Source of the DNA: Chlamydiales bacterium
GTDB taxonomy: Bacteria; Chlamydiota; Chlamydiia; Chlamydiales; JBDQID01
Assembly: GCA_047611865.1 (NCBI GenBank)
Contig: JBLFWS010000101.1
Span: 1 to 12,435, forward strand
Length of the DNA stretch: 12,435 nucleotides
Direction: 5' to 3'
Below the pieces are notes generated by a model that worked only from the letters and a program-made list of their open reading frames with translations, was not told the origin of the DNA and made no database searches. This document shows positions 185 through 12,435 of the stretch, piece by piece. Every line of letters starts with the position of its first letter. Positions within the stretch are counted from its first letter, which is position 1. The position numbers and the translations under genes are program-made.

Positions 185-526
185 CTACTCGAAGAAATTG
201 ATTACGAAATTATTTGGTAGGAGGGTCATGTAGAGTAGTGTGCCTGTGACTAGGCTGAGTAGTGTGTTGCGTTTGTATGCGTGTATGATGCTGATGTATG
301 TTATGGCGGTGAATTCGGGGATTCCGTAGGGGATGGATTGTATGGGTGTTTCTTTGATGCAGTGTACTATTAAGAGGAACATGATGGTGGCGGGAAGGTA
401 TTTTCCGAGGTGGCGGATGAGTTCGTTGTTTTTCATTTTTTCAGCAGCGAAAAAAGGAATGGCTCTTGTGCAGAAGGTTGCTAGGGACATGGCGCCGATG
501 ACCCCGAAGATATAAGCTAGTTGCAT
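185..526 (-). CDS. azlD: AzlD-family branched-chain amino acid exporter, small subunit
   Basis: 113-aa hydrophobic protein with the TF.TRA.PF and LGKYLP..IM..L.V.C motifs and C-terminal KRN.LLS...GT.LYM.L typical of AzlD/BrnE. Its start overlaps the azlC stop by 10 nt. Confidence 0.9.
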   Translation of the reverse strand: MQLAYIFGVIGAMSLATFCTRAIPFFAAEKMKNNELIRHLGKYLPATIMFLLIVHCIKETPIQSIPYGIPEFTAITYISIIHAYKRNTLLSLVTGTLLYMTLLPNNFVINFFE

Positions 527-1251
527 ATTTTTTTTGTTTCCCAGGTTTTGTGTGCTATGAGCATTCCGGCGGAGATGGTGATTGCGATGAATAGCATATT
601 TTTTGGAAAAAAGATTAGGGAGATGAGAGCTGCGACGAGGGCTATGATGAAAGGGGTGAATGTTTGTACATTAGCGGCCTGCTCAATGGTGAGAATGACG
701 AATATGGCTGTAGGGACAAATTCTATTCCGGGTATATCTGGGGAGAGGTTGGCTCCACAGTATGCGCCGAGGATGCTACCCATCATCCAGTAGGAGTGAA
801 TTAAGGCGGTGACGTAGAAGCAGTGGTTGGGGTCTTGGCTTTTTTCTAGTGGGGGAGATGATGTAAGTAGAGAGTAGGTTTCATCTGTTAAGCCGAATAT
901 CATATATAGTTTTTTTAGCTTCCCACACTGATATCGTTCTAGTAGGGATAGCCCATAAAAGATGTGACGTAAATTGATAAGAAAGGTCGTGAGGGCTATG
1001 TCAATAATCGATGCTTGTGCAGCAATTAATGTGATAGCTAGAATTTGGGCGCTTCCGGCGAGGACGAAGAGGCTCATTAAAGGGCCTACAAATACATCGT
1101 ATCCTAGCCTTTGGAAAAGGAATCCGCAGGTGAATCCAAAGGGGATATAAGCAAAAAAAATTGGGAGGCTACATTTTAAAGCATTCAAGAAAGTTGAGTT
1201 TGATGAAGTCGCTTGTAACTCAGTGGGGATGGAATGGGCTTCTGAGGACAT
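517..1251 (-). CDS. azlC: AzlC-family branched-chain amino acid exporter, large subunit
   Basis: 244-aa multi-TM protein with AzlC hallmarks LPIFFAYIPFGF..G, MS..V.AGSAQ, INLRHIFYGLSL and FGLTDETYS. Paired with azlD. The ATG is 1 nt after the mnmH stop. Confidence 0.92.
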   Translation of the reverse strand: MSSEAHSIPTELQATSSNSTFLNALKCSLPIFFAYIPFGFTCGFLFQRLGYDVFVGPLMSLFVLAGSAQILAITLIAAQASIIDIALTTFLINLRHIFYGLSLLERYQCGKLKKLYMIFGLTDETYSLLTSSPPLEKSQDPNHCFYVTALIHSYWMMGSILGAYCGANLSPDIPGIEFVPTAIFVILTIEQAANVQTFTPFIIALVAALISLIFFPKNMLFIAITISAGMLIAHKTWETKKICN

Positions 1252-1252
1252 C

Positions 1253-2272
1253 TTAGTGCCATGAATCGTATTTGGAGAATTGAAGGATCTTATGAGCCCA
1301 TTGATGAGGGCTTAGTCCGTGTGCTGTCAGGGTGCTGATAGGCTGCTTTCGTTTGCTGAGACTATATTGATAAGCTTTGTCATAGTATTCGAGAACCATT
1401 TTGCCGGCTTTCAGATAGTCCCCTGATTCAATTAAGGATAAGATGCCTTTTGTGCGTAGGCCGCCGAGCTTTTTGCTAAGGCGTTGGGTCGATTCCATAA
1501 CGGAGGCAATCTCGAAGTTGCCATAGTCTTTTTCGAGGTTGGAGTGTCTCTCTGAAAGGGGAACATCGATTTTGAACAAGGGGGCTGCTTGCATGCCGTT
1601 AAAAATATTTTTGGGTATGGAGCAGAAGCCAATCAAACGACTTTCATCTTCTACCCATACGGGTTTTTCAGTACTAAAAGAGGCCCATTTTATTGCGATG
1701 TTATTTTCGAACTGCTCGGAAGTGGGTTGTTCACCAACTTTTCCAAAGGCGCTGCCCCGATGGTTGGCTAAGCCTTCTAAATCCAGGACCTGTTCTCCCA
1801 TACTTTCGAGAGCGTGTAATATATGGGTTTTATTAGATCCTGTGAGTCCTCCAATAACTCGGAGTTTTCTCGGTTTTTGCAGGTTTTCGAGAGCCCAGTT
1901 TCGGAAGCTTTTGTAGCCTCCTTCAAGAGTGCTGCTCGTAGTTCCTGTTAACTCTAAAAGTTCAGCTACGGAGCTGCTGCGCATGCCGCCACGCCAGCAG
2001 TGAACTTTTGCGGGCTGCCCTTTGAGGGTTTCCCTAGCTTTGGAGATGAGATGAGGAATTTGAGGCTCTATGATACTGAGGCCCAGATTAATGGCTTCTT
2101 GAACACCGACTTGTTTGTAGGTGGTGCCCACTTCTGAGCGCTCGGCATTCGTAAAGAGGGGTATATTGATAGCTAGAGGTATGTGTCCCTTGGCGTATTC
2201 GGCAGGGGACCTGACATCAATGATGGTGCCTTGAGTTTCGATAAATGGTTCGACAGCTAAGATCTCTGGCAT
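1253..2272 (-). CDS. mnmH: tRNA 2-selenouridine(34)/geranyl-2-thiouridine synthase SelU/MnmH
   Basis: N-terminal rhodanese domain (IDVRSPAEYAKGHIP, VGTTYKQ, HCWRGGMRS, LEGGYKSFR) followed by a P-loop domain (GGLTGSNKT, DLEGLANHRGSAFG, EDESRLIG, YYDKAY). Start moved from 2341 to ATG 2272, which is preceded by GAGGG and avoids overlap with serS; 339 aa. Confidence 0.93.
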   Translation of the reverse strand: MPEILAVEPFIETQGTIIDVRSPAEYAKGHIPLAINIPLFTNAERSEVGTTYKQVGVQEAINLGLSIIEPQIPHLISKARETLKGQPAKVHCWRGGMRSSSVAELLELTGTTSSTLEGGYKSFRNWALENLQKPRKLRVIGGLTGSNKTHILHALESMGEQVLDLEGLANHRGSAFGKVGEQPTSEQFENNIAIKWASFSTEKPVWVEDESRLIGFCSIPKNIFNGMQAAPLFKIDVPLSERHSNLEKDYGNFEIASVMESTQRLSKKLGGLRTKGILSLIESGDYLKAGKMVLEYYDKAYQYSLSKRKQPISTLTAHGLSPHQWAHKILQFSKYDSWH

Positions 2273-2291
2273 TTTTCCCTCATAATTGTGA

Positions 2292-3590
2292 TTAGGACAT
2301 GGCCGGAGACGTTTCCTGGGGCTCAAGCTTACTGATACCACCTAAGTACTTTTGGAGTACTTCGGGTATGTTTATGGAACCATCGGCATTTTGGTTGTTT
2401 TCCAGTAGGGCAACCATTAAGCGAGAGGTTGCTAGAGAGGAGCCATTGAGAGTGTGTAAAAGCTCGGGCTTTTCTCCTTTTTTCCTGTAGCGGATTTGTG
2501 AGCGACGTGCCTGGTAGTCCGTGCAGTTGGAGATAGAAGAAACCTCATAATAACGATCTTGGCCTGGAAGCCAAACTTCTATGTCGACAGTACGTGCGGA
2601 GGCAAATGACATGTCACCTGTGACAAGAAGCATATTGCGGTAGTGTAAACCGAGGCCTTGGAGGATTTCTTCAGCGGTGGATACCATTTCATCAAACATT
2701 TTTGGGCTATCTTCTGGCTTGGTGAAGCAAAATAACTCAACTTTGTTGAACTGGTGTACGCGGATAAGGCCTCGTTCTTGAGATCCTGCAGCACCGGCTT
2801 CTCGACGAAAGCAAGGGGTATAAGCTGTGTATTTTAGGGGCAGTTCTTCTTCGGTAAGGATCTCGTCGTAGTGTAGTCCATTGAGGATTACCTCAGCAGT
2901 AGGGATCATGTACAAGTCGAAATGTTCGTCCTTAAGGCGAAAAACCTGGTCTCCAAATTTAGGGAGTTGTCCTGAGCCGTAGAGGATTTCGGGACGGGCT
3001 ACCAAAGGAGGTATCCATTGGGTAAAGCCATTTTTAATATTGCAGTCTAACATGTAGTTGATAAGTGCCCATTCGAGGCGTGCCCCCATTCCACGGTATA
3101 CTGGCCATCCGCTCCCGGAAACCTTTGCTCCTCTTTTGAAATCGAAAAGGTTCAGGTCTTCGTTGAGTTCTAGGTGGTTTTTGAATGAGAAGGAGAACTC
3201 GGTTTTTTTTCCTACTTCTTTGATACAGACGTTGTCTTCGACATCATGAGAAATTTTGACGTCTTCCATAGGGAGGTTAGGGAGTGAGGCGAGCTCATGA
3301 GTGAACTGACTGTCGAGTTCACGGGATTTTTCGTCGAGATCATGGATTAGGGAGCCTAGTCCCTCGACTTCTTTCATAATTTCGCTGGCATCTTCTCCTT
3401 CTCTCTTGAGTTCGCCGATTTTTTTTGAAATGCTGTTGCGCTTGGATTTGAGCTCTTCAACTTCTAATTTGACTTTCCGTAATTGCGAGTCTAGGTTTAT
3501 AACCAGAGACGTGCTGGCATCGGGTTCTTTTCTTTTGATGAGTTCTTCAATGCGACTTTGATCATTACGAATTGTTTTAATATCGAGCAT
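2292..3590 (-). CDS. serS: Serine--tRNA ligase (class II aaRS)
   Basis: MLDIK N-terminus and coiled-coil arm, GQLPKF, IPTAEV, motif 2 PCFRREAG...RGLIRVHQFNKVE, EVSSISNCTDYQARR, motif 3 HTLNGSSLATSR. SD GGAGGT at 3594-3599. Confidence 0.98.
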   Translation of the reverse strand: MLDIKTIRNDQSRIEELIKRKEPDASTSLVINLDSQLRKVKLEVEELKSKRNSISKKIGELKREGEDASEIMKEVEGLGSLIHDLDEKSRELDSQFTHELASLPNLPMEDVKISHDVEDNVCIKEVGKKTEFSFSFKNHLELNEDLNLFDFKRGAKVSGSGWPVYRGMGARLEWALINYMLDCNIKNGFTQWIPPLVARPEILYGSGQLPKFGDQVFRLKDEHFDLYMIPTAEVILNGLHYDEILTEEELPLKYTAYTPCFRREAGAAGSQERGLIRVHQFNKVELFCFTKPEDSPKMFDEMVSTAEEILQGLGLHYRNMLLVTGDMSFASARTVDIEVWLPGQDRYYEVSSISNCTDYQARRSQIRYRKKGEKPELLHTLNGSSLATSRLMVALLENNQNADGSINIPEVLQKYLGGISKLEPQETSPAMS

Positions 3591-3617
3591 ATTACCTCCA
3601 AGAATACAAGTTTAAAA

Positions 3618-3646
3618 AGTATAGGTGTCGTCACGAATTTTGTCAA
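3618..3646 (-). promoter_or_regulatory. Sigma70/sigma66-type promoter for the serS operon
   Basis: Minus strand TTGACA (3646-3641), 17-nt spacer, TATACT (3623-3618). Predicts a leader of about 20 nt containing the GGAGGT SD. Confidence 0.8.
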
Positions 3647-3672
3647 CAAACTCTAGGGGGTTATTTTTCTTG

Positions 3673-3678
3673 TATAAT
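3673..3678 (+). promoter_or_regulatory. Putative -10 element for smc
   Basis: Perfect TATAAT ending 55 nt upstream of the smc GTG. No convincing -35 at 17 bp. Confidence 0.45.
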
Positions 3679-3694
3679 AAGGTGAAAATGTGAG

Positions 3695-3731
3695 ATAAAT
3701 GCACTCCCTATTTGTGCATTATGGAGTGCAT
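3695..3731 (+). promoter_or_regulatory. Inverted repeats in the smc leader overlapping its Shine-Dalgarno
   Basis: ATGCACTCC (3699-3707) is the exact reverse complement of GGAGTGCAT (3723-3731), which contains the GGAG SD. AATGCAC (3698-3704) also pairs with GTGCATT (3714-3720). Confidence 0.55.
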
Positions 3732-3733
3732 CC

Positions 3734-6700
3734 GTGCGTTTAAAAAAGATTGAGCTTTATGGTTTTAAGTCATTCGCTGATAGAACTGTTTTGGTTTTTG
3801 ATGAAGGAATTACAGGAATTGTCGGGCCTAATGGTTGTGGCAAGTCGAACATCATTGATGCCTTTAGATGGGTAATCGGAGAGCAATCTGCGAAGTCCAT
3901 GCGTGGCGATAAAATGAATGATGTTATTTTTGCTGGAGCTTCAAAGCGTAGCTCTTTGAATTATGCCGAAGTATCTCTGACATTCACAGAAGTTAAGGGG
4001 GCTCTTCCTATTGATTTCGATGAAGTATCCGTCTCCCGTCGCGTCTATCGTAGTGGAGATTCGGAATATCGGATAAATCGAAATATCGTTCGGCTTAAGG
4101 ATGTGCAAAGTTTATTTTTGGGAACCGGAATTGGGAAGACGGGGTTTTCTATTTTTGAACAAGGGAAGATCGATCAGATTATCCTTAATAACCCGGTCCA
4201 GCGTCGCTATATTTTCGAAGAAGCAGCGGGTATCCTCAGATTCAAACAGCGTAAAAAAGAAGCTTTAAACAAGCTGGAGCAAACCCAGTCAAATTTGGAA
4301 AGAGCTCGCGATATTTTTGACGAAGTAAAAAAACGACTGGCAACTCTTTCTAAACAAGCTGAAGCGGCACGACGCTTCAAAACAAATAAAAGTAATTTTG
4401 AAGGTCTTGACAAAGCTGTTTTCCTTGCTAAATGGGAAGGCTTGAAAGCACGAAATGAAGACCACCTTTCCAAGCAGACCTTGATAGAAGAAGACAAAAG
4501 CAAGCACGATGCTTCTCTGGAAGAAATGGAAGGCGAGATCGCCAAAATTGAAAAGCTACTATCTTCCAGCGATGAAGATTTCCAGAAAGTCAAAGAAAAA
4601 GTATTCGGTACTCGCGGAGTGAAAGAAGTCGCAATCGTTGAGGAGAGGTCCCGAAAGGAACGTGTTCGTGAAGGCGAGGCTCGAGATAAAACACTGCGGC
4701 AGGATTCTCAAGAATTGAGAAAGCGTCGTAAAGACAATGAAAAAGAGATTGCCGTATTTCGACTTGACGAAGAGAAGTTTAAGGAAACTTTGAAAGCTGA
4801 AGAGATTAAGCTTAAAAAGAGCGAGAAAACAGTTGCCTCTGCTGAAAAAGAGATTGGGGATTTACGAGACTCGCAAAAGAAATCGCAGAAAAGCCTTCTC
4901 CATTCTATGGAGGACTTGAACCGTTGGGATGGAAAGCTTAAAGACAGTCGCGTTCGTCTTGAGAGCTGTCAGGAAAAGCTGGCATGGCTTGAAGATCAAA
5001 TGAAAGAAAATAGCGCAACTTTGAAAAGTTTGCGTAGTGATATTGAGAGCAAGAAAAAGGTAGTTGATACTACAGTGGGGCGTATTGATGGCCTGAAAGG
5101 CTCTTTGATAGAAGCGGAAGATCAGGTTGCAGATACAAACCTTGCAATTCGTAAAGGTCAGGAAGAGCAGAAAAGGGTCCTGGGGAAAGTAGCAGAGGTA
5201 AGCGCTAGAAAAGAAGTGCTAGAACGCTTGCGTGAGGAGATGGAAGGGCTCTCTTTAGATACACGATCTTTATTGCGCGAATCAGCAAAAGCAAAGAGTC
5301 CTTTAAAAGGTCTTCTACAACCTCTTTATGAACGAATTGTTCCGAAATCTGGTAATGAAGAGTTTCTTGCAACCGCTTTGCGGCAATATGCTCAGACTAT
5401 CGTCGTGCAAAAGTCTCAAGATCGCGAAAAAGTTTTACTCTTTGCTAAGGAAAATAAACTGCGGGATTTTTCACTCTTTTGCGTTGAAGATGCTAGAAAT
5501 GAGAAAAATGCGGCAGGAAAGATTTCCGGAGCGTCCTCCCTTTTAGATTTTGTCGAGAAGAATGAGATTGCTGAGCACTTTTTGCAGGACGTATACGTTG
5601 TTGAATCGATTGATAAGGCTGTAGCTCTCTCTAGGAGTAAGCAAAATTTAGAAGCGTTAGTAGAAGGGGGTATTCTTGTAGATAGGCACTCTGTTCTAGC
5701 TTCTACGACCCTTGGAGAGGGGAGCACTTTTGTCCGAGAGGCGGAAGTAAAAGTGCTTTCTACAGAATTGAAGAAGGTAGAAGGGCTCTGTAGAAAGGCT
5801 GAGGAAACTCTTACTGCACTAGAGCAGAAAAAAGCATTGGAGCTTTCTCGCAGGGGTGAAATCGATCAGATGATGCGCCGTGAAGAAATGAAGCTGGTGG
5901 AAGTCAATATGTTTCTCCAAGGGGCGATTGCTAATAGGGATAAGGTTCAAGGGCAGCTTGAAGCTAACGCTGAAGAATCGAAAACGCAAAAAGAAAATAC
6001 TAATAAATTCGGCTCCTTAATTAAGGAAGCGGAGAAAGAACTATCTGTAGCGCAGAAAAATAGCGAAAAGTTCCGTCTCATTGTAGAAGAGAGCGAGAGA
6101 TCTCTGGAAGGACAACTGAAAGTTCTGGAGGAGTTGAAGCAAGAATATCGTGAATGCGAGTTGCTTCACAAAGAGCAAGCTGATGAAGTACGAACGGTTG
6201 CGAATTCCTTAAATGTGTTAGAGATGCAGGCTAAGGAGTGGGAGCGGCAGCAGGGGAATCTGGAAAAAGAGTTGCTTACATTGTCCAATTCTCAGGAAGG
6301 CCTTGTGGCTAGGGAAGTGGAATACCGGCAGAAGTTGGAAGCAATCGAGAAAGAGCTGGAATCTCAGGAAGCAGCCTGTGATAAATTAAAATCTCAAGTG
6401 GAAAAGCAGAAAGAGTTGTTGGAACAAAAGACTCTGACCCTTCGAAAGTACCGTGAAAAAATTCATAAACTTGAAGAAAAAAGAAGTAGCCTCGGTATAA
6501 AAGCTGCACGTAGCGTTGCCGAACTCGAAGCTTTGGAAACGAGCTTTCATGAGCGCTATCAGATAAATTTTGAACAGGCTTCCAAGATGCAATTGCCTGT
6601 AGTACAAGATCTTCTAATAGCAGAACAGGCTTTGGCCCAGCTCCGTAGAGAAATCGAGAAGGCAGGCGATGTCAACATGTCTTCCATCGATGAATACGAG

Positions 6701-8547: not shown

Positions 8548-11364
8548 GTGAATATGAAGGATCAATCTCGTTATGTTATTGGAATAGATCTTGGAACAAC
8601 AAACAGTTGTGTTTCTTTTGTAGATTGTGACAGGGAGAAAAACCCCGGCCTCTCTATTCGCCTTTTTCCTATACTTCAGGCATCTCTTAAGGGTGTTGTG
8701 GAGGCTAAAACAACGCTTCCATCTTTTTGCTATCTTTCTAGAAAAGATGAATTTAGTAAAGGCACCCTGGATCTCCCTTGGGCACAAGAACGAGATTTTG
8801 TAACAGGTGTTTTTGCTCAAGAGCAAGGAGGTAAAGTTCCATCTCGTTTGGTACAGTCAGCAAAAAGTTGGCTGTGCAATCGTGCAGCAGATCGAAGAGA
8901 TAAGATTCTTCCATGTGAAGCAGGTGAGGAAGTAAAGCGCTTGAGTCCCGTAGAGGCCACAGCCCACTACTTGCGACACATTAAGGATGCCTGGAACCAC
9001 GTCATAGCAAAAGGGGATCCTAAGGAAGAGTTTGAACAGCAAGAAATCATTCTTACTGTTCCAGCTTCTTTTGATGAAGTTGCCAGATCACTCACCGTTG
9101 AGGCGGCTAAGCAAGCTGGCTTTGTGAATATGACATTGCTAGAGGAGCCTCAAGCGGCCTTTTATCATTGGATTTCTGATCAAAAGGAGACCTTTGACAA
9201 GACATTAAAGCTTGGTGATCAGGTTGTGGTGTGTGACGTAGGTGGGGGTACGTGTGATTTCAGCCATATAGAAGTCAAAAGTGACGATGAGGGTGCACTA
9301 AGTTTTCACCGCATGGCCGTTGGTCGGCACCTATTGCTCGGTGGTGATAATATGGATGGGGCTATTTGTCATTATCTCGAGGGTAAGTTTAAAAAAGAGG
9401 GGCACGGGGAGTTAGATCCAGATCAGTGGCTACAGATGAAGCATCACTCCCGCGTTGCAAAGGAATATTTGTTGCAGGGTATATCGGAAGATGACGCGAG
9501 CTATGTGGTGACATTGCAAGGCTCTGGAAGTAGCGTGGTGTCAGGTAGCATAAGTACTCACATCACTCGTGGAGAACTCGAGAGCTTTCTTTTAGACGGT
9601 TTTTTCCCAATTCAGGATTTGACGGAAGCTATGCAGCTGAGGAAGGGAACGGGTGTACGAACGATGGGGCTACCTTACGAGAGTGAGCCTTCGATTACAA
9701 AACACCTTGCCACGTTTTTGCATTCAGCAAATCTTTGTGGAAAAGATTGTGAAAAGAAGACCAATTACCTCCTCTTTAATGGCGGGTGTATGAAGCCTTT
9801 GATTTTTAAGGAAAGAATCTTGAGCGCTGTAGCTCAGTGGTCTGGGGGAGAGCCTCCAGCTATACTTCCCTCTGATAGTCTCGATACCGCTGTAGCTAGA
9901 GGTGCAGCTTATTTCGGCAAGGTGCGTCGAGGTTTGGGTTGTCGTATTGGAGGGGGATCCCCTCGAGGTTACTACCTTGCAATTGATGTGAAGGGGAAAA
10001 AGGGAGAAGTCGAAAAGAAGGCTTTAACTTTACTTCCAAGGGGTACAGAAGAGGGCTCTTCATATGAGCCAGATCAACAGTTTTGGATGACCCCAAATAC
10101 TCCGGTTTTATTTGAGGTGCTGACCTCTAATACGCGCTTGAATGACAAAAAAGGGCAGCTTGTTCCACTAGAAGAAGAAGATTTTTCTGAACTTCTTCCT
10201 CTTCATACGATATTGCGCTTCGGAAAGAAGGGTTTTGGTGATAGTCATGGAAAGGTTCCAGTATCTTTAGGAATAAAACTTAGTGAGATAGGAACTCTTG
10301 ATCTTTGGTTAAAATCTGTAGAGACTGAACACAAGTGGAACCTTAGTTTTCAACTTCGTAACGCTTCTGGTCAAGATGATAGTATTAGAGCTTCAGGGGA
10401 TGGACGTAAAGATGAGACCTTTGATTCAAGTTATCTGGAGGAGGCTCGGCAGTATATTAAGAAAACCTATAGTGATAATCACGGGGTAAAACCTACGCAA
10501 TTGATGAATCAACTGGAAGGAATCTTGGAGAAGCCAAAAGACAGTTGGGCTCCGAGTAGTCTTAGGGAACTTTGGGAGGCCCTTCACCAAGAAGCCCCAA
10601 AGAGAGGGAAGTCTTCTGAGCACGAAGCTCGATGGTGGAATTTAACGGGATTTTGTGCACGACCGGGTTTTGGATATCCTCTTGACGATTTTCGCATTAA
10701 AGAGCTTTGGAAGATAATCCTTGGAGATTACAAAAAGAAAAAAGATCACAACTGTTCCGTGCAAAGATGGATATGTTTCAGGCGTATTGCTGGAGGCTTA
10801 AATAAAGGGCAGCAGATGCAGCTAGCAAGAGAGATTATTCCTACCCTGATGGATGCAAAGTCCAATGTCTTCAGAGAAATTGGAACTGAGAACGCTTATG
10901 AATATGCCGAGAAAATACGTGCTCTGGGGGCTATGGAGCTATTGGAAAGAGGTGTGAAAGAGCGTTTAGGTAATGCATTGATCGAGCGTATTTATGCTGA
11001 CAAAGCCCTGTCTTGTGAATATTGGGCACTTGCCCGGATAGGTGCCAGGCATCTTATATACGGATCTGTTGGATCTGTTGTCTCTAGAAAAACTTGTTCA
11101 AGATGGGTGGAAAGGCTTATCCGTTCTGGACGTGCAGATTCAGAACGTCTGTTCTTTGTGTTTTGGCAGCTTGCAAGAAAGGTAGATCAGAGGGAACTTA
11201 ATCTACAGGAGTCTTTAATTGAGAGAATTAAAGAACAGTTTTCTTCTTCAGAGGAGAAATATCGCTTTATGTCCCTGGTCAATGGGGATAATGCCTTGAC
11301 AAAAGAAGAAGAAGAGCAAGTTTTTGGTGATCAATTGCCTTCTGGACTTTCTCTCTCTTGTTAA
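8548..11364 (+). CDS. DnaK-related Hsp70-family protein with non-canonical C-terminal domain (DUF3731-like)
   Basis: Hsp70 ATPase motifs IGIDLGTTNS, SAKSWL, LTVPASFD, LLEEPQAA, DVGGGTCD, LGGDNMD, LFNGG, AVARGAA. No DnaK linker or substrate-binding domain. Trp-rich helical C-terminus (HEARWWNLTGFCARPGFGYPLDDFRI, WALARIGAR, FGDQLPSGL). Start may be ATG 8554. Confidence 0.85.
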   Translation: MNMKDQSRYVIGIDLGTTNSCVSFVDCDREKNPGLSIRLFPILQASLKGVVEAKTTLPSFCYLSRKDEFSKGTLDLPWAQERDFVTGVFAQEQGGKVPSRLVQSAKSWLCNRAADRRDKILPCEAGEEVKRLSPVEATAHYLRHIKDAWNHVIAKGDPKEEFEQQEIILTVPASFDEVARSLTVEAAKQAGFVNMTLLEEPQAAFYHWISDQKETFDKTLKLGDQVVVCDVGGGTCDFSHIEVKSDDEGALSFHRMAVGRHLLLGGDNMDGAICHYLEGKFKKEGHGELDPDQWLQMKHHSRVAKEYLLQGISEDDASYVVTLQGSGSSVVSGSISTHITRGELESFLLDGFFPIQDLTEAMQLRKGTGVRTMGLPYESEPSITKHLATFLHSANLCGKDCEKKTNYLLFNGGCMKPLIFKERILSAVAQWSGGEPPAILPSDSLDTAVARGAAYFGKVRRGLGCRIGGGSPRGYYLAIDVKGKKGEVEKKALTLLPRGTEEGSSYEPDQQFWMTPNTPVLFEVLTSNTRLNDKKGQLVPLEEEDFSELLPLHTILRFGKKGFGDSHGKVPVSLGIKLSEIGTLDLWLKSVETEHKWNLSFQLRNASGQDDSIRASGDGRKDETFDSSYLEEARQYIKKTYSDNHGVKPTQLMNQLEGILEKPKDSWAPSSLRELWEALHQEAPKRGKSSEHEARWWNLTGFCARPGFGYPLDDFRIKELWKIILGDYKKKKDHNCSVQRWICFRRIAGGLNKGQQMQLAREIIPTLMDAKSNVFREIGTENAYEYAEKIRALGAMELLERGVKERLGNALIERIYADKALSCEYWALARIGARHLIYGSVGSVVSRKTCSRWVERLIRSGRADSERLFFVFWQLARKVDQRELNLQESLIERIKEQFSSSEEKYRFMSLVNGDNALTKEEEEQVFGDQLPSGLSLSC

Positions 11365-11365
11365 T

Positions 11366-11376
11366 TGTGGTACAAT
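11366..11376 (+). promoter_or_regulatory. Extended -10 promoter candidate for the SWIM/SNF2 gene
   Basis: TGTG-G-TACAAT (TRTGn plus a -10 with one mismatch to TATAAT) in the 45-nt intergenic gap. Confidence 0.45.
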
Positions 11377-11409
11377 ATTCAGATTTTGAAATATCAGCTT
11401 GCAGGGGAT

Positions 11410-12435
11410 ATGAAAGCGGCGGATCTATTTGACGACTATAGGGTGATAGCTGAGGAATACCTCGATAAAGGTTATGTTGGTGAGCTTAGCTTTTCTGGGA
11501 GAACTTACCAGATTCAAGTTAAGGACGAGCAGAGTGGAGAAGAAATTTGGCCTTTCATGCAGTTCAGCGAAGAGGGCTTGATTAAAGATTATTTTTGCTC
11601 TTGTCCTGCAGCTGAAGAAGCTCCAGCTTGTGAACACCTTGCAGCAGCTTGCATGAGGATTTTTAACGGTCATCCTGACCCTTTGCATCTTCGTTTTAAA
11701 GAGTCTTTATGGAATCAACTCTGTGAACTGTATGCCTTTCGGCAAGGTTTCGATACTGATGTCCTGAAAAAGATCGGAGAAGGACACTATGTTTGTGAAG
11801 CAGTTTCAGGCAAAACCCTGTTTTTTGTTAGGGGGAAATCTGAAGATGCCAATAGGCGCTTGAAAATCATAATCGACGAACGAACGGTTGAGACGGAGGA
11901 GACTTCCCTGAAGTTTTCTGACCTTAGCCAGGAAGACATTGCCCTATGGCGAGAGGGTCGTCCTAGAGCCCCCCTGCGATATGAGTTGTCCTTTTGGTCT
12001 GACTTCGCTAAGTGGCTTATGTGGAGGCAAGATGTTCGTGATTCGTACGAAATTAACTTTCGCTTCGATGACGAGGGTATCCCTAATCAAATATGGATTG
12101 ATTTTGAAGATCTTTCCTTAGCATTCTATGTTTCAGAAGCGAATCTTCCGGGGATAATTCCTTCTTTGTCCACTGTGGACACTACCTTGCCTGTTTATAA
12201 CTTCAATGAAGAAGCTATCGAAGAAATCTCTTACGATGAAAACAACAAACAATTGTTGATAAAGCTTCGAGAGGAGTTGGTGGAGCAAAGCAAAGACATT
12301 TCAAATAGCACTCAAGGACCAACAGAGAAATACTATTTTGGTGACTGGTTATATGTTCCTAATGATGGTTTTTACTTTCGTGGAGAACATAGCTTATTAG
12401 CACTACCTATTGTTGATACAATCGATATCCCAGCA
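11410..12435 (+). CDS. SWIM zinc-finger protein, probable N-terminus of a chlamydial SNF2/SWI2-family helicase (partial, runs off the window)
   Basis: Not in the ORF track. Open for 342 codons from ATG 11410: MKAADLFDDYRVIAEEYLDKG...YFCSCPAAEEAPACEHLAAA...PLHLRFKESLWN...LRYELSFWSDFAKWL. SWIM motif CxC-x8-CxH at 11596-11637. From recall, it resembles the N-terminus of the Chlamydia CT555-type SNF2 helicase; the helicase motifs lie beyond the window. Confidence 0.78.
   Translation, partial: MKAADLFDDYRVIAEEYLDKGYVGELSFSGRTYQIQVKDEQSGEEIWPFMQFSEEGLIKDYFCSCPAAEEAPACEHLAAACMRIFNGHPDPLHLRFKESLWNQLCELYAFRQGFDTDVLKKIGEGHYVCEAVSGKTLFFVRGKSEDANRRLKIIIDERTVETEETSLKFSDLSQEDIALWREGRPRAPLRYELSFWSDFAKWLMWRQDVRDSYEINFRFDDEGIPNQIWIDFEDLSLAFYVSEANLPGIIPSLSTVDTTLPVYNFNEEAIEEISYDENNKQLLIKLREELVEQSKDISNSTQGPTEKYYFGDWLYVPNDGFYFRGEHSLLALPIVDTIDIPA

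Follow-up and report, generated by a model that had tools for sequence, protein, structure and literature searches.

A sub-kilobase patch of extreme silent-site strand skew at the 3' end of a chlamydial azlCD operon: a possible local mutational footprint

Results

Genes and features at the left end of the window

The DNA analysed here, hereafter the window, is a stretch of 12,435 nt from a Chlamydiales bacterium (contig JBLFWS010000101.1). Near its left end lie two intact genes on the minus strand, azlD and azlC, whose products scored 74.2 and 141.4 bits against the Pfam families AzlD and AzlC (curated cut-offs 23.7 and 32.1, respectively). By family, they are predicted to be an AzlD/AzlC branched-chain amino-acid exporter pair. 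The two genes share 10 nt, and azlC begins 1 nt past the stop codon of the ORF upstream of it. The features referred to below are as follows.

54 to 184, no strand assigned: spacer 3' of azlD with small stem-loops (DNA-fold stems at about 84-124, 132-141 and 143-162)
185 to 526, minus strand: azlD, intact (Pfam PF05437, E = 9.7e-21, profile positions 2-98 of 99)
188 to 214, minus strand: tail of azlD, its last 9 sense codons, between the patch and the spacer
210 to 440, minus strand: second reading frame, 76 residues from stop to stop, rich in His, Thr and Pro, without a start codon
215 to 442, minus strand: core of the patch, azlD codons 29-104, silent sites near saturation
443 to 900, minus strand: shoulder of the patch, 5' end of azlD and 3' half of azlC, delimited by the two-changepoint fit and the amino-acid shift
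517 to 1,251, minus strand: azlC, intact (Pfam PF03591, E = 3.3e-41)
901 to 3,590, minus strand: operon baseline, comprising the 5' part of azlC, a rhodanese-domain ORF and serS

Extent and borders of the skewed patch

The silent sites of azlD are strongly skewed. Excluding Met and Trp, 95 of its 108 codons end in A or C, and in codons 29-104 the count is 72 of 73 non-Met codons, the sole exception being codon 44, CTT. The first 40 codons of serS gave 24 of 39. All three figures had been counted by hand in the original prediction and were reproduced here. From about 215 to 900, codons with A or C in third position number 190 of 220; elsewhere in this operon they number 583 of 880 (Fisher test, P = 1.1e-9). 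The best window of 73 codons contains 72 such codons in azlD and 61 in azlC, and at most 57 in each of the other six genes of the window. The bias is also visible when all sites are considered: the G+T content of the plus strand over 215-442 is 0.724, which makes it the top 228-nt window (mean 0.544, sd 0.046), A+C accounts for 71% of first codon positions in the core, azlD holds 112 C and 37 G over its three codon positions, and the GC skew over 201-400 is 0.60.

In azlC as a whole, 172 of 235 codons end in A or C, and bins of 25 codons showed that the proportion is high at the 3' end and drops toward the 5' end. The original prediction had noted this fall. Its shape, predicted as a decay with distance, is less distinct: an exponential decay (length 0.38 kb, AIC 1326) beats models with per-gene constants (AIC 1335 and 1333), but a free single step at about 856 (AIC 1322) and two steps at 443 and 919 (AIC 1318; A/C-ending levels of 0.94, 0.80 and 0.66) fit at least as well. 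The profile resembles a plateau as much as a gradient, and the sequence left of position 1 lies outside the window. Since the decay and step models beat the per-gene models and the borders fall inside genes, the skew is positional and is not a property of a gene. It is local and strand-specific and runs on from azlD into azlC, within which it ends, in agreement with the original prediction.

In Pfam, nothing at E up to 1 matched the second minus-strand frame at 210-440, which is read as a by-product of the missing T at azlD third positions. Overlapping genes were rejected as a constraint on the sequence, the plus-strand ORFs at 333-515 and 521-793 having sub-threshold Pfam matches alone (E = 0.13). 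A chimeric assembly is unlikely, because homology is continuous through azlC and identical proteins are recorded on 3 contigs.

Silent-site baseline in the rest of the window

Beyond position 900, the minus strand shows no heterogeneity among its 35 bins of 25 codons, which lie around 0.663 (chi-square 31.6, P = 0.59). The plus-strand genes are homogeneous too (P = 0.12), and the other 11.5 kb of the window, outside the patch, is statistically uniform in silent-site skew. Minus-strand genes are 0.66-0.88 A/C-ending and the four plus-strand genes 0.57-0.61 G/T-ending; thus the plus strand is G+T-rich at silent sites across the window whatever the gene orientation, which fits a replication-associated strand asymmetry. 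The sign of the skew is unchanged throughout the window. The uniform magnitude of a replichore-type bias was not found, as the patch stands at 0.86 against 0.66 (P = 1e-9) while the remaining window is homogeneous. No DnaA-box cluster of the kind expected at a replication origin was seen among the 50 boxes in the window (36 expected), and the left end has one box, with 2 mismatches, at 179-187.

The spacer and its stem-loops

The original prediction had anchored the skew at hairpins in the spacer and had placed its peak beside them. Neither idea was borne out. The region 1-184 is unskewed (plus-strand G+T 0.53), and so are the intervening azlD codons at 188-214, with A or C at the end of 5 of the 9, so that the skew stops short of the hairpins. 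The stems are 4-6 bp long and no stabler than shuffled sequence. Against shuffles, the DNA folds of 80-170 and 54-184 gave z values of -0.09 and -0.57 on the plus strand and -0.06 and +0.55 on the minus strand, and RNA folds over 1-190 gave -1.28 and +0.58. Stable stem-loops specific to the lagging-strand template, as in a primase or primosome initiation hairpin, were not found in the DNA folds.

Database and motif searches of this region were likewise negative. On both strands of 1-1400, no intrinsic terminator (a G+C-rich stem followed by a T run) and no sigma-70-like promoter was found, 2.4 promoters being expected by chance. Rfam gave no match over the whole window at E up to 1, and the tRNA/tmRNA scan found none. 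No other convincing copy of the 1-184 element is present in the window, and one of its stem-loop motifs had no match in the 80 listed loci described below. The inverted pair at 29-51 and 514-536, which flanks azlD, was considered as an inversion signal and rejected, since its 19 matches of 23 are mostly an A/T run and look like chance. A diversity-generating retroelement or other templated hypermutation was also rejected: direct repeats involving 185-900 are at most 19 nt long, at chance level, no such domain occurs among the 8 proteins of the window, and the changes are not adenine-specific.

Only transitions are involved

At four-fold degenerate sites, the purine fraction is 0.364 in the patch and 0.342 in the baseline, so only transitions are involved. 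Within the purines, A:G is 39:1 in the patch against 107:32 outside (P = 0.002), and within the pyrimidines, C:T is 57:13 against 162:105 (P = 0.001). C>T and A>G are thus both enriched on one strand with the purine/pyrimidine balance unchanged, which is the pattern of organelle-type gradients. On the logit scale, the strand effect goes from 0.54 outside to 1.67 in the patch at two-fold pyrimidine sites and from 0.47 to 1.73 at two-fold purine sites, a factor of 3.1 to 3.7 by our own arithmetic from the counts. The synonymous first position of leucine codons showed a tendency in the same sense, with CTA to TTA at 10:3 in the patch against 27:27 outside (P = 0.12). Amino-acid composition was rejected as the cause of the skew: with its amino acids held fixed and codons drawn as in serS and the rhodanese ORF together, azlD should have 71.1 A/C-ending codons, and 95 were observed (z = 4.9).

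The skew extends to amino-acid replacements

For the close relatives (72-91% identity), the comparison covers protein sequences. In the A/C content implied at codon positions 1 and 2, the AzlD of the window ranks first of 92 homologues (0.532 against 0.444, sd 0.023). Residues 29-104 of AzlD are shifted to A/C-rich codons by +0.122 (se 0.028) and residues 1-28 by -0.011; the corresponding shifts are +0.063 (se 0.024) in the C-terminal half of AzlC and +0.023 (se 0.026) in its N-terminal half. SerS, at -0.017, showed no shift. Among the replacements that could be polarised to the lineage of the window, 5 of 5 in AzlD and 7 of 9 in AzlC went toward A/C (12 of 14 together), against 1-3 toward A/C and 3-4 toward G/T in SerS. 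Together with the transition-only pattern, these shifts in the same sub-regions uphold the mutation-like process proposed in the original prediction.

The AzlD shift is common to relatives at 91% and 74% protein identity (+0.080 and +0.072, respectively), and the pressure is therefore old and persistent. Protein divergence from the relatives is not elevated, AzlC and AzlD being 87-91% identical and SerS 89-90%, so that only the direction of change, and not its rate, is shown to differ. These identities and the lack of a transversion excess speak against repeated resynthesis by a low-fidelity polymerase, one of two candidate processes originally suggested. The other, that one strand stays single-stranded, fits the transition pattern. 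The differences between AzlC and its relatives are spread across both halves of the protein, without a mosaic pattern. Beyond three close relatives, the nearest homologues among the matches listed belong to archaeal and gammaproteobacterial records, at 46-50% identity; among the same matches, azlCD appears to be patchy in chlamydiae, with close relatives in few lineages.

azlCD loci in other genomes do not have the skew

Loci were surveyed with a profile built from 17 of the best 120 of 1,199 AzlC proteins, the window's own included. The survey set consists of the 80 loci listed, the best 48% identical, with the source genome and its close relatives outside the set. An azlC-azlD pair is present in 71 of these 80 loci, and the azlD genes there are 0.27-0.64 A/C-ending, none of the 71 reaching 0.8. 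In the 64 listed loci with enough neighbouring codons, azlD minus its same-strand neighbours averaged -0.039 (sd 0.062, maximum 0.142), against +0.213 in the window. No 73-codon window exceeded 58 in either direction among 267,947 windows from 1,228 ORFs of the 80 listed unrelated loci. A property of the gene family was rejected as the source of the skew, because the 71 listed azlCD loci lack it. Simple recent transfer, for which the original prediction had allowed, does not agree with the maximum of 0.64 in these azlD genes or with a lineage that is moving off the baseline.

Discussion

A possible source of the patch

We tentatively regard the patch at about 215-900 as a local mutational footprint, for which antisense transcription from the downstream spacer is the most likely source among those considered, with a probability that we put somewhat short of even. 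The patch behaves like mutation pressure, and selection on nucleic-acid composition would look alike in these data. On this explanation, the plus strand would have gained C>T and A>G transitions over a long time, about threefold more strongly than the surrounding DNA, which on the coding strand would appear as G>A and T>C. These are the changes to which bases are prone in single-stranded DNA, and the bias seen across whole chlamydial replichores points the same way. From changes of the single-strand type in the patch, we infer that the plus strand is more exposed there than elsewhere. Conjecturally, antisense transcription would enter the 3' end of the azl operon from the downstream spacer with the plus strand as non-template, and the putative G-rich antisense RNA on its C-rich template would stabilise an R-loop, so that the skew might reinforce itself.

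Several observations touch on the role of transcription. The unskewed spacer and the last 9 codons of azlD are compatible with a start near 215 but not with read-through from a point further left. Against the explanation, no sigma-70-like promoter was found on either strand of 1-1400, and sense transcription of the operon, whose non-template strand is the A/C-rich one, exposes the strand opposite and predicts the opposite sign. The four plus-strand genes, exposed both by replication and by their own transcription, are only 0.57-0.61 G/T-ending, which also counts against the explanation; transcription alone would therefore need unusual intensity or amplification by an R-loop.

Alternative explanations

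A link to replication, the conventional version of the process originally suggested, we consider possible though rather unlikely. The operon is head-on, and its 3' end would hold a preferred site of Okazaki priming or of fork pausing: the plus strand, as lagging-strand template, would stay single-stranded longest just right of the site and give a sawtooth of deamination. Such a sawtooth predicts both the abrupt left edge at about 215, next to an unskewed region, and the fall over the next 0.7 kb or so; the skew has the sign of the replichore-wide bias, with the plus strand G+T-rich across the window, and the transition-only pattern agrees. In the available portions of PMC9561281 and PMC2695485, organellar gradients are anchored at replication start sites; no bacterial chromosomal example was found in the literature searched. 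By our inference, fixed priming gives at most about 2-fold exposure over random priming, less than the 3.1-3.7 seen, and the left end offers neither stem-loops stabler than shuffles on either DNA strand nor a DnaA-box cluster. An equal probability is given to the absence of any local device, in which case the patch would be the extreme tail of ordinary strand-bias heterogeneity, possibly helped by loose constraint on a transporter acquired long ago and seldom expressed. The strand bias here is certainly strong (lagging-strand third-position A+C 0.66, against 0.506 for C. muridarum in Table 1 of PMC2089121), the evidence comes from 12.4 kb of the genome, and close relatives of azlCD occur in few lineages, the next homologues being at most 50% identical among the matches listed. 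A tail is nevertheless hard to reconcile with a remaining window that is binomially homogeneous, with borders within genes, with the z of 4.9 given the amino acids and with the 5' half of azlC, which is at baseline under the same expression and constraint; the plus-strand genes, including a long ORF without Pfam match, are also far from saturation.

Selection on the transcript, to which we give slightly less weight, would keep the distal mRNA C-rich, G-poor and unstructured, for example so that Rho could load on the mRNA of an operon that has no intrinsic terminator. C-rich RNA poor in G is what Rho prefers; the excess of C over G in azlD is of this kind, no intrinsic terminator was found in 1-1400, and among 228-nt windows of the operon mRNA the core folds least stably (-17.9 to -20.7 kcal/mol; mean -47.1, sd 10.8). 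However, such a composition leaves an mRNA weakly structured no matter what produced it, and selection of this kind does not call for the exchange of A for T at silent sites. The stretch is also translated, its 0.7 kb goes far beyond the need of a loading site, and C-richness is lacking closest to the 3' end, at 188-214 and in the spacer. The sharp borders, the patchiness of azlCD in chlamydiae and the step to 46-50% identity after three close relatives among the matches listed might instead point to a segment acquired or recombined from a replicon with extreme strand asymmetry, its donor composition kept. This is improbable, given that the highest value among the 71 listed azlD loci is 0.64, that the replacements of the lineage itself (12 of 14) go further toward A/C, the opposite of amelioration, that the AzlC differences lack a mosaic pattern and that blastn of 1-1300 found no match in plasmid or phage collections. 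Least probable by far is translational selection for exact Watson-Crick codons with a minimal tRNA set. Anticodons with G34 and U34 pair with C- and A-ending codons, as this would have it, but such selection would act on whole genes, and the 5' half of azlC is at baseline and serS, in the same operon, is unaffected; the amino-acid shift and the CTA-over-TTA tendency are left unexplained.

Significance

Bacterial strand asymmetry is usually treated as a property of the whole replichore, and the literature searched contained no account of skew patches shorter than a kilobase, whether in chlamydiae or in other bacteria. If the footprint of antisense transcription or a similar local exposure is real, exposure would differ about three-fold between sites a few hundred bases apart and would last across species. 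The patch saturates silent sites, and the composition of AzlD moves from valine and glycine to isoleucine, threonine and asparagine. In uncultured organisms, fine-scale skew might then locate fixed priming sites, zones of R-loops or strong antisense transcription; if the phenomenon is general, sub-kilobase skew peaks would mark such exposure sites from sequence alone. A caution follows for codon-usage screens, which would flag azlD as foreign or highly expressed; neither seems to be the cause. A more far-reaching formulation, which we hold to be unlikely, is that, in this environmental chlamydia, a head-on operon has a conserved point at its 3' end from which the lagging-strand template habitually stays single-stranded, through a self-reinforcing antisense R-loop or a fixed Okazaki start; the outcome would be an organelle-like deamination shadow of about 0.7 kb in a bacterial chromosome, strong enough to alter the composition of AzlD.

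Comparison with known systems

G4-type primase sites, which serve single-strand initiation in phages and plasmids, consist of three adjacent stem-loops and give a fixed priming point. The spacer resembles them in having a group of neighbouring stem-loops within some 100 nt of the lagging-strand template, and differs in that its stems are only 4-6 bp and not stabler than shuffles; we know of no flanking skew at single-strand initiation signals. A cytosine deaminase gives only C>T, as a burst. The strand-coordinated deaminase clusters described for the DddA toxin in the available part of PMC7901873 are likewise clustered transitions, but in the patch A>G contributes at least equally and the shift is old and continuous, reaching relatives at 74% identity.

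Transcription-associated mutagenesis is reportedly the subject of classical work in E. coli. Mutagenesis of the non-transcribed strand and of strands exposed by R-loops is treated in PMC2866735 and PMC6411842, and, so far as the available portions of these papers go, the likeness is that a displaced strand collects deaminations locally, tied to a transcription unit. The difference is that sense transcription here predicts the opposite sign, so that a putative antisense transcript is needed.

In C. muridarum, lagging-strand genes favour C- and A-ending codons and leading-strand genes G- and T-ending ones, with cytosine deamination cited in the available part of PMC2089121. That bias has the direction of the patch, but it is uniform over the replichore and moderate (third-position A+C of 0.506 in lagging-strand genes), whereas here a patch of 0.7 kb reaches 0.86-0.99 over a baseline of 0.66. 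A likeness in kind of change is to the organelle gradients, in which C>T and A>G accumulate on an exposed single strand (mtDNA heavy strand, PMC9561281; chloroplast, PMC2695485). According to the available portions of these sources, the patch shares with them the same pair of transitions, the readout at silent sites and the dependence on position. The organelle gradients are anchored at a fixed start and span kilobases of a small genome under strand-displacement replication, whereas the present case is a patch of 0.7 kb within a bacterial chromosome, with a presumed single-stranded intermediate.

Gene layout and host lineage

The left 3.6 kb of the window is occupied by four closely packed minus-strand genes, here called the operon; plus-strand genes follow. 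The features are:

185 to 526, minus strand: azlD, overlapping azlC by 10 nt
517 to 1251, minus strand: azlC, starting 1 nt past the stop of the upstream ORF
1253 to 2341, minus strand: ORF with a rhodanese domain as its sole Pfam match (ORF call and Pfam)
2292 to 3590, minus strand: serS (ORF call and Pfam)
3734 onward, plus strand: smc, alanine dehydrogenase, a DnaK-related DUF3731 protein and an ORF without Pfam match (Pfam)

The listed GTG start of the rhodanese-domain ORF gives a 50-nt overlap with serS; an alternative ATG lies 23 codons downstream (about 2272), 20 nt past the serS stop. The region 8548-12435 holds the DUF3731 protein (938 aa), followed directly by the ORF without Pfam match, which runs off the window.

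SerS has its closest named relatives in Chlamydiota metagenome bins and in Waddlia chondrophila (about 70% identity); the chlamydial assignment was thus right, and the lineage is environmental. Among the protein matches listed, azlCD has three close relatives (72-91% identity), and the next ones, from Methanosarcinales, gammaproteobacteria and others, are at most 50% identical. This sharp drop suggests that the chlamydial lineage acquired azlCD long ago.

A local excess of strand bias in azlD and azlC

The plus strand is G+T-rich at third positions in every gene of the window, the A/C-ending fraction being 0.66-0.88 in minus-strand genes and the G/T-ending fraction 0.57-0.61 in plus-strand genes. 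Under the leading/lagging strand rule for third positions documented for Chlamydia muridarum (PMC2089121), the plus strand is the leading one, and the serS-azlD operon is therefore head-on to replication. The divergent serS/smc spacer (3591-3733) is AT-rich (GC about 0.34) and the skew does not switch sign there; the spacer is therefore no origin. Within smc, one 100-codon stretch (4345-4650) falls to 0.40 G/T-ending, against 0.58 in the plus-strand genes, a dip within their overall homogeneity (P = 0.12).

Three hand counts of A/C-ending codons in the original prediction were reproduced exactly: 72 of 73 non-Met codons in the core (215-442, azlD codons 29-104; all but codon 44, CTT), 95 of 108 in all of azlD and 24 of 39 in serS codons 1-40. 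The all-site G+T content of the window peaks at 213-440 (0.724; mean 0.544, sd 0.046), and the GC skew at 201-400 is 0.60. Over 215-900, here called the patch, 190 of 220 codons end in A or C, compared with 583 of 880 in the rest of the operon (Fisher 1.1e-9). The best 73-codon window scores 72 in azlD and 61 in azlC; none of the other six genes goes above 57. When the codon usage of serS and the rhodanese-domain ORF was applied to the amino acids of each protein, 71.1 A/C-ending codons were expected and 95 observed in azlD (z = 4.9), which rules out amino-acid composition as the cause, and 155.9 were expected and 172 observed in azlC (z = 2.25). The remainder of the window fits a uniform binomial fraction, both in the operon past 900 (chi-square 31.6 over 35 bins of 25 codons, P = 0.59) and in the plus-strand genes (112 bins, P = 0.12).

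For comparison we used 80 azlC-bearing loci of other prokaryotes, listed in a profile search with the AzlC alignment (1.32 Mb, 1,228 ORFs, 267,947 windows); no 73-codon window in them exceeds 58 in either direction. An adjacent azlC-azlD pair is present in 71 of the 80 (the remaining 9 were dropped), with azlD 0.27-0.64 A/C-ending. Of these, 64 have 300 or more neighbouring codons on the same strand (7 more were dropped); there the excess of azlD over its neighbours averages -0.039 (sd 0.062, maximum 0.142), against +0.213 in the window. These values rule out a trait of the azlD family; they also speak against a simple recent transfer from a donor sharing the A/C-ending usage, and donor composition is further contradicted by replacements in the window lineage, mostly towards A/C. 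The patch is not due to chance, amino-acid composition or family membership.

Shape and borders of the patch

Table. A/C-ending fraction in 25-codon bins, and models of the skew
188-263: 0.84
266-338: 1.00
341-416: 0.96
Bins up to about 886: 0.80-0.88, one bin 0.68
Bins past about 886: about 0.66
Constants per gene: AIC 1335
Three constants (azlD, azlC, rest): AIC 1333
Exponential decay from 185, length 0.38 kb, 0.94 to 0.66: AIC 1326
Single free step at 856, 0.86 to 0.66: AIC 1322
Two steps at 443 and 919, 0.94/0.80/0.66: AIC 1318

The fits indicate that the skew is positional and ends inside azlC. Of the predicted decay over about 1 kb across a gene boundary, the crossing holds, and decay does better than per-gene models (1326 against 1333-1335), yet the step models score 1318-1322; a gradient and a plateau are both compatible with the profile. 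The left edge is abrupt: the last nine azlD codons are 5/9 A/C-ending and the G+T content of 1-184 is 0.53, so, contrary to the proposal, the skew does not peak right beside the small stem-loops at 1-168.

Nor do these stem-loops look like an anchoring element. Stems in 1-190 are present but short; the RNA fold of 1-190 has z = -1.28 (plus strand) and +0.58 (minus strand), and DNA folds of 80-170 and 54-184 have z from -0.57 to +0.55. Rfam and tRNA searches gave nothing there, no terminator-like or promoter-like sites were found, plasmid and phage collections had no match to the region, DnaA boxes do not cluster at the left end, and no second copy occurs in the window or the 80 listed loci. 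The hairpin region thus bears no mark of a special element. The plus-strand frame at 3-53, open from the window edge with its stop at 51-53, resembles a protein C-terminus, and 54-184 may be a spacer between convergent genes. An inverted repeat (29-51/514-536, 19 of 23 positions complementary) brackets azlD and the spacer; it is mostly an A8/T8 run, on a par with chance pairs elsewhere in the window.

Nature of the bias and its footprint in the proteins

Between the patch and its surroundings the purine fraction at 4-fold sites does not change (0.364 and 0.342), while A:G among the purines moves from 107:32 outside to 39:1 in the patch (P = 0.002) and C:T among the pyrimidines from 162:105 to 57:13 (P = 0.001). 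The bias consists of transitions only: coding-strand G>A and T>C, equivalent to plus-strand C>T and A>G. We separated the strand effect from strand-independent codon preference by logit arithmetic, with baseline counts from the plus-strand genes (T:C 406:184, A:G 358:291) and the operon outside the patch (C:T 115:87, A:G 131:42). In logit units the effect rises from 0.54 and 0.47 at baseline to 1.67 and 1.73 in the patch (C:T 41:10, A:G 22:2), by our arithmetic a 3.1- to 3.7-fold strengthening.

The A/C content at codon positions 1-2 implied by the protein is 0.532 for the window's AzlD, rank 1 of 92 listed homologues (the other 88: mean 0.444, sd 0.023), and 0.501 for its AzlC, rank 3 of 120 listed. 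Compared with homologues column by column, AzlD residues 29-104 are shifted by +0.122 (se 0.028) and residues 1-28 by -0.011; AzlC is shifted by +0.063 (se 0.024) over its C-terminal half and by +0.023 over its N-terminal half, and SerS by -0.017. The amino-acid shift therefore maps as the silent-site bias does. Replacements were polarised by comparison with the closest relative, the next relative serving as outgroup. In the window lineage, 5/5 AzlD replacements (e.g. D>N twice, I>T, V>T) and 7/9 in AzlC gain A/C; SerS has 1-3 towards A/C versus 3-4 towards G/T, depending on the pair chosen. AzlD of the relatives (91% and 74% identical) carries most of the shift (+0.080 and +0.072), which indicates that the pressure predates their divergence and continues to act. 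The two proteins show no raised divergence (AzlC 87% and AzlD 91% identical to relatives, SerS 89-90%); change in azlCD differs from that in SerS in its direction, with no sign of a higher rate.

Possible sources of the bias

The two transitions of the patch are those that accumulate on single-stranded DNA. Organelle genomes have this very pair, graded by single-stranded time (PMC9561281, PMC2695485). Of the two processes originally proposed, an exposed single strand is favoured over a low-fidelity polymerase, since the latter would add transversions and raise divergence, neither of which was observed; we thus favour extra single-strandedness of the plus strand.

As to what exposes it, sense transcription is rejected because it exposes the wrong strand. 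Antisense transcription from near 215 would expose the right one and would account both for the abrupt left border and for the lack of skew at 188-214; however, the promoter search over 1-1400 gave no match, and ordinary transcription contributes little here, to judge from the plus-strand genes. R-loops are linked to GC skew; one formed by a G-rich transcript on its C-rich template could be stabilised, and the skew could thereby feed back on itself. With a fixed Okazaki start, a sawtooth of the correct polarity would be expected, but by our reasoning the exposure could at most double.

Explanations at the level of the transcript or the gene product were also considered. Selection may favour an unstructured, C-rich, G-poor mRNA end; the folding energy of the core mRNA is -17.9 kcal/mol (mean -47.1), although such weak folding follows from the composition, whatever its cause. 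Translational selection is contradicted by a bias that is positional and ends inside azlC. A constraint from overlapping genes is likewise contradicted, the alternative frame at 210-440 having neither start codon nor Pfam match. This minus-strand frame (+2 with respect to azlD; 76 residues, rich in His/Thr/Pro/Arg) spans exactly the core without a stop, probably because azlD lacks T at its third positions there.

Comparison with known systems

No description of sub-kilobase skew patches in bacteria was found in the literature searched. The anomaly is both strong and conserved. The closest known phenomenon is the replichore-wide bias of chlamydiae, from whose expected uniformity the patch departs; the closest in form is the deamination gradient of organelles, whose chemical signature the patch carries.
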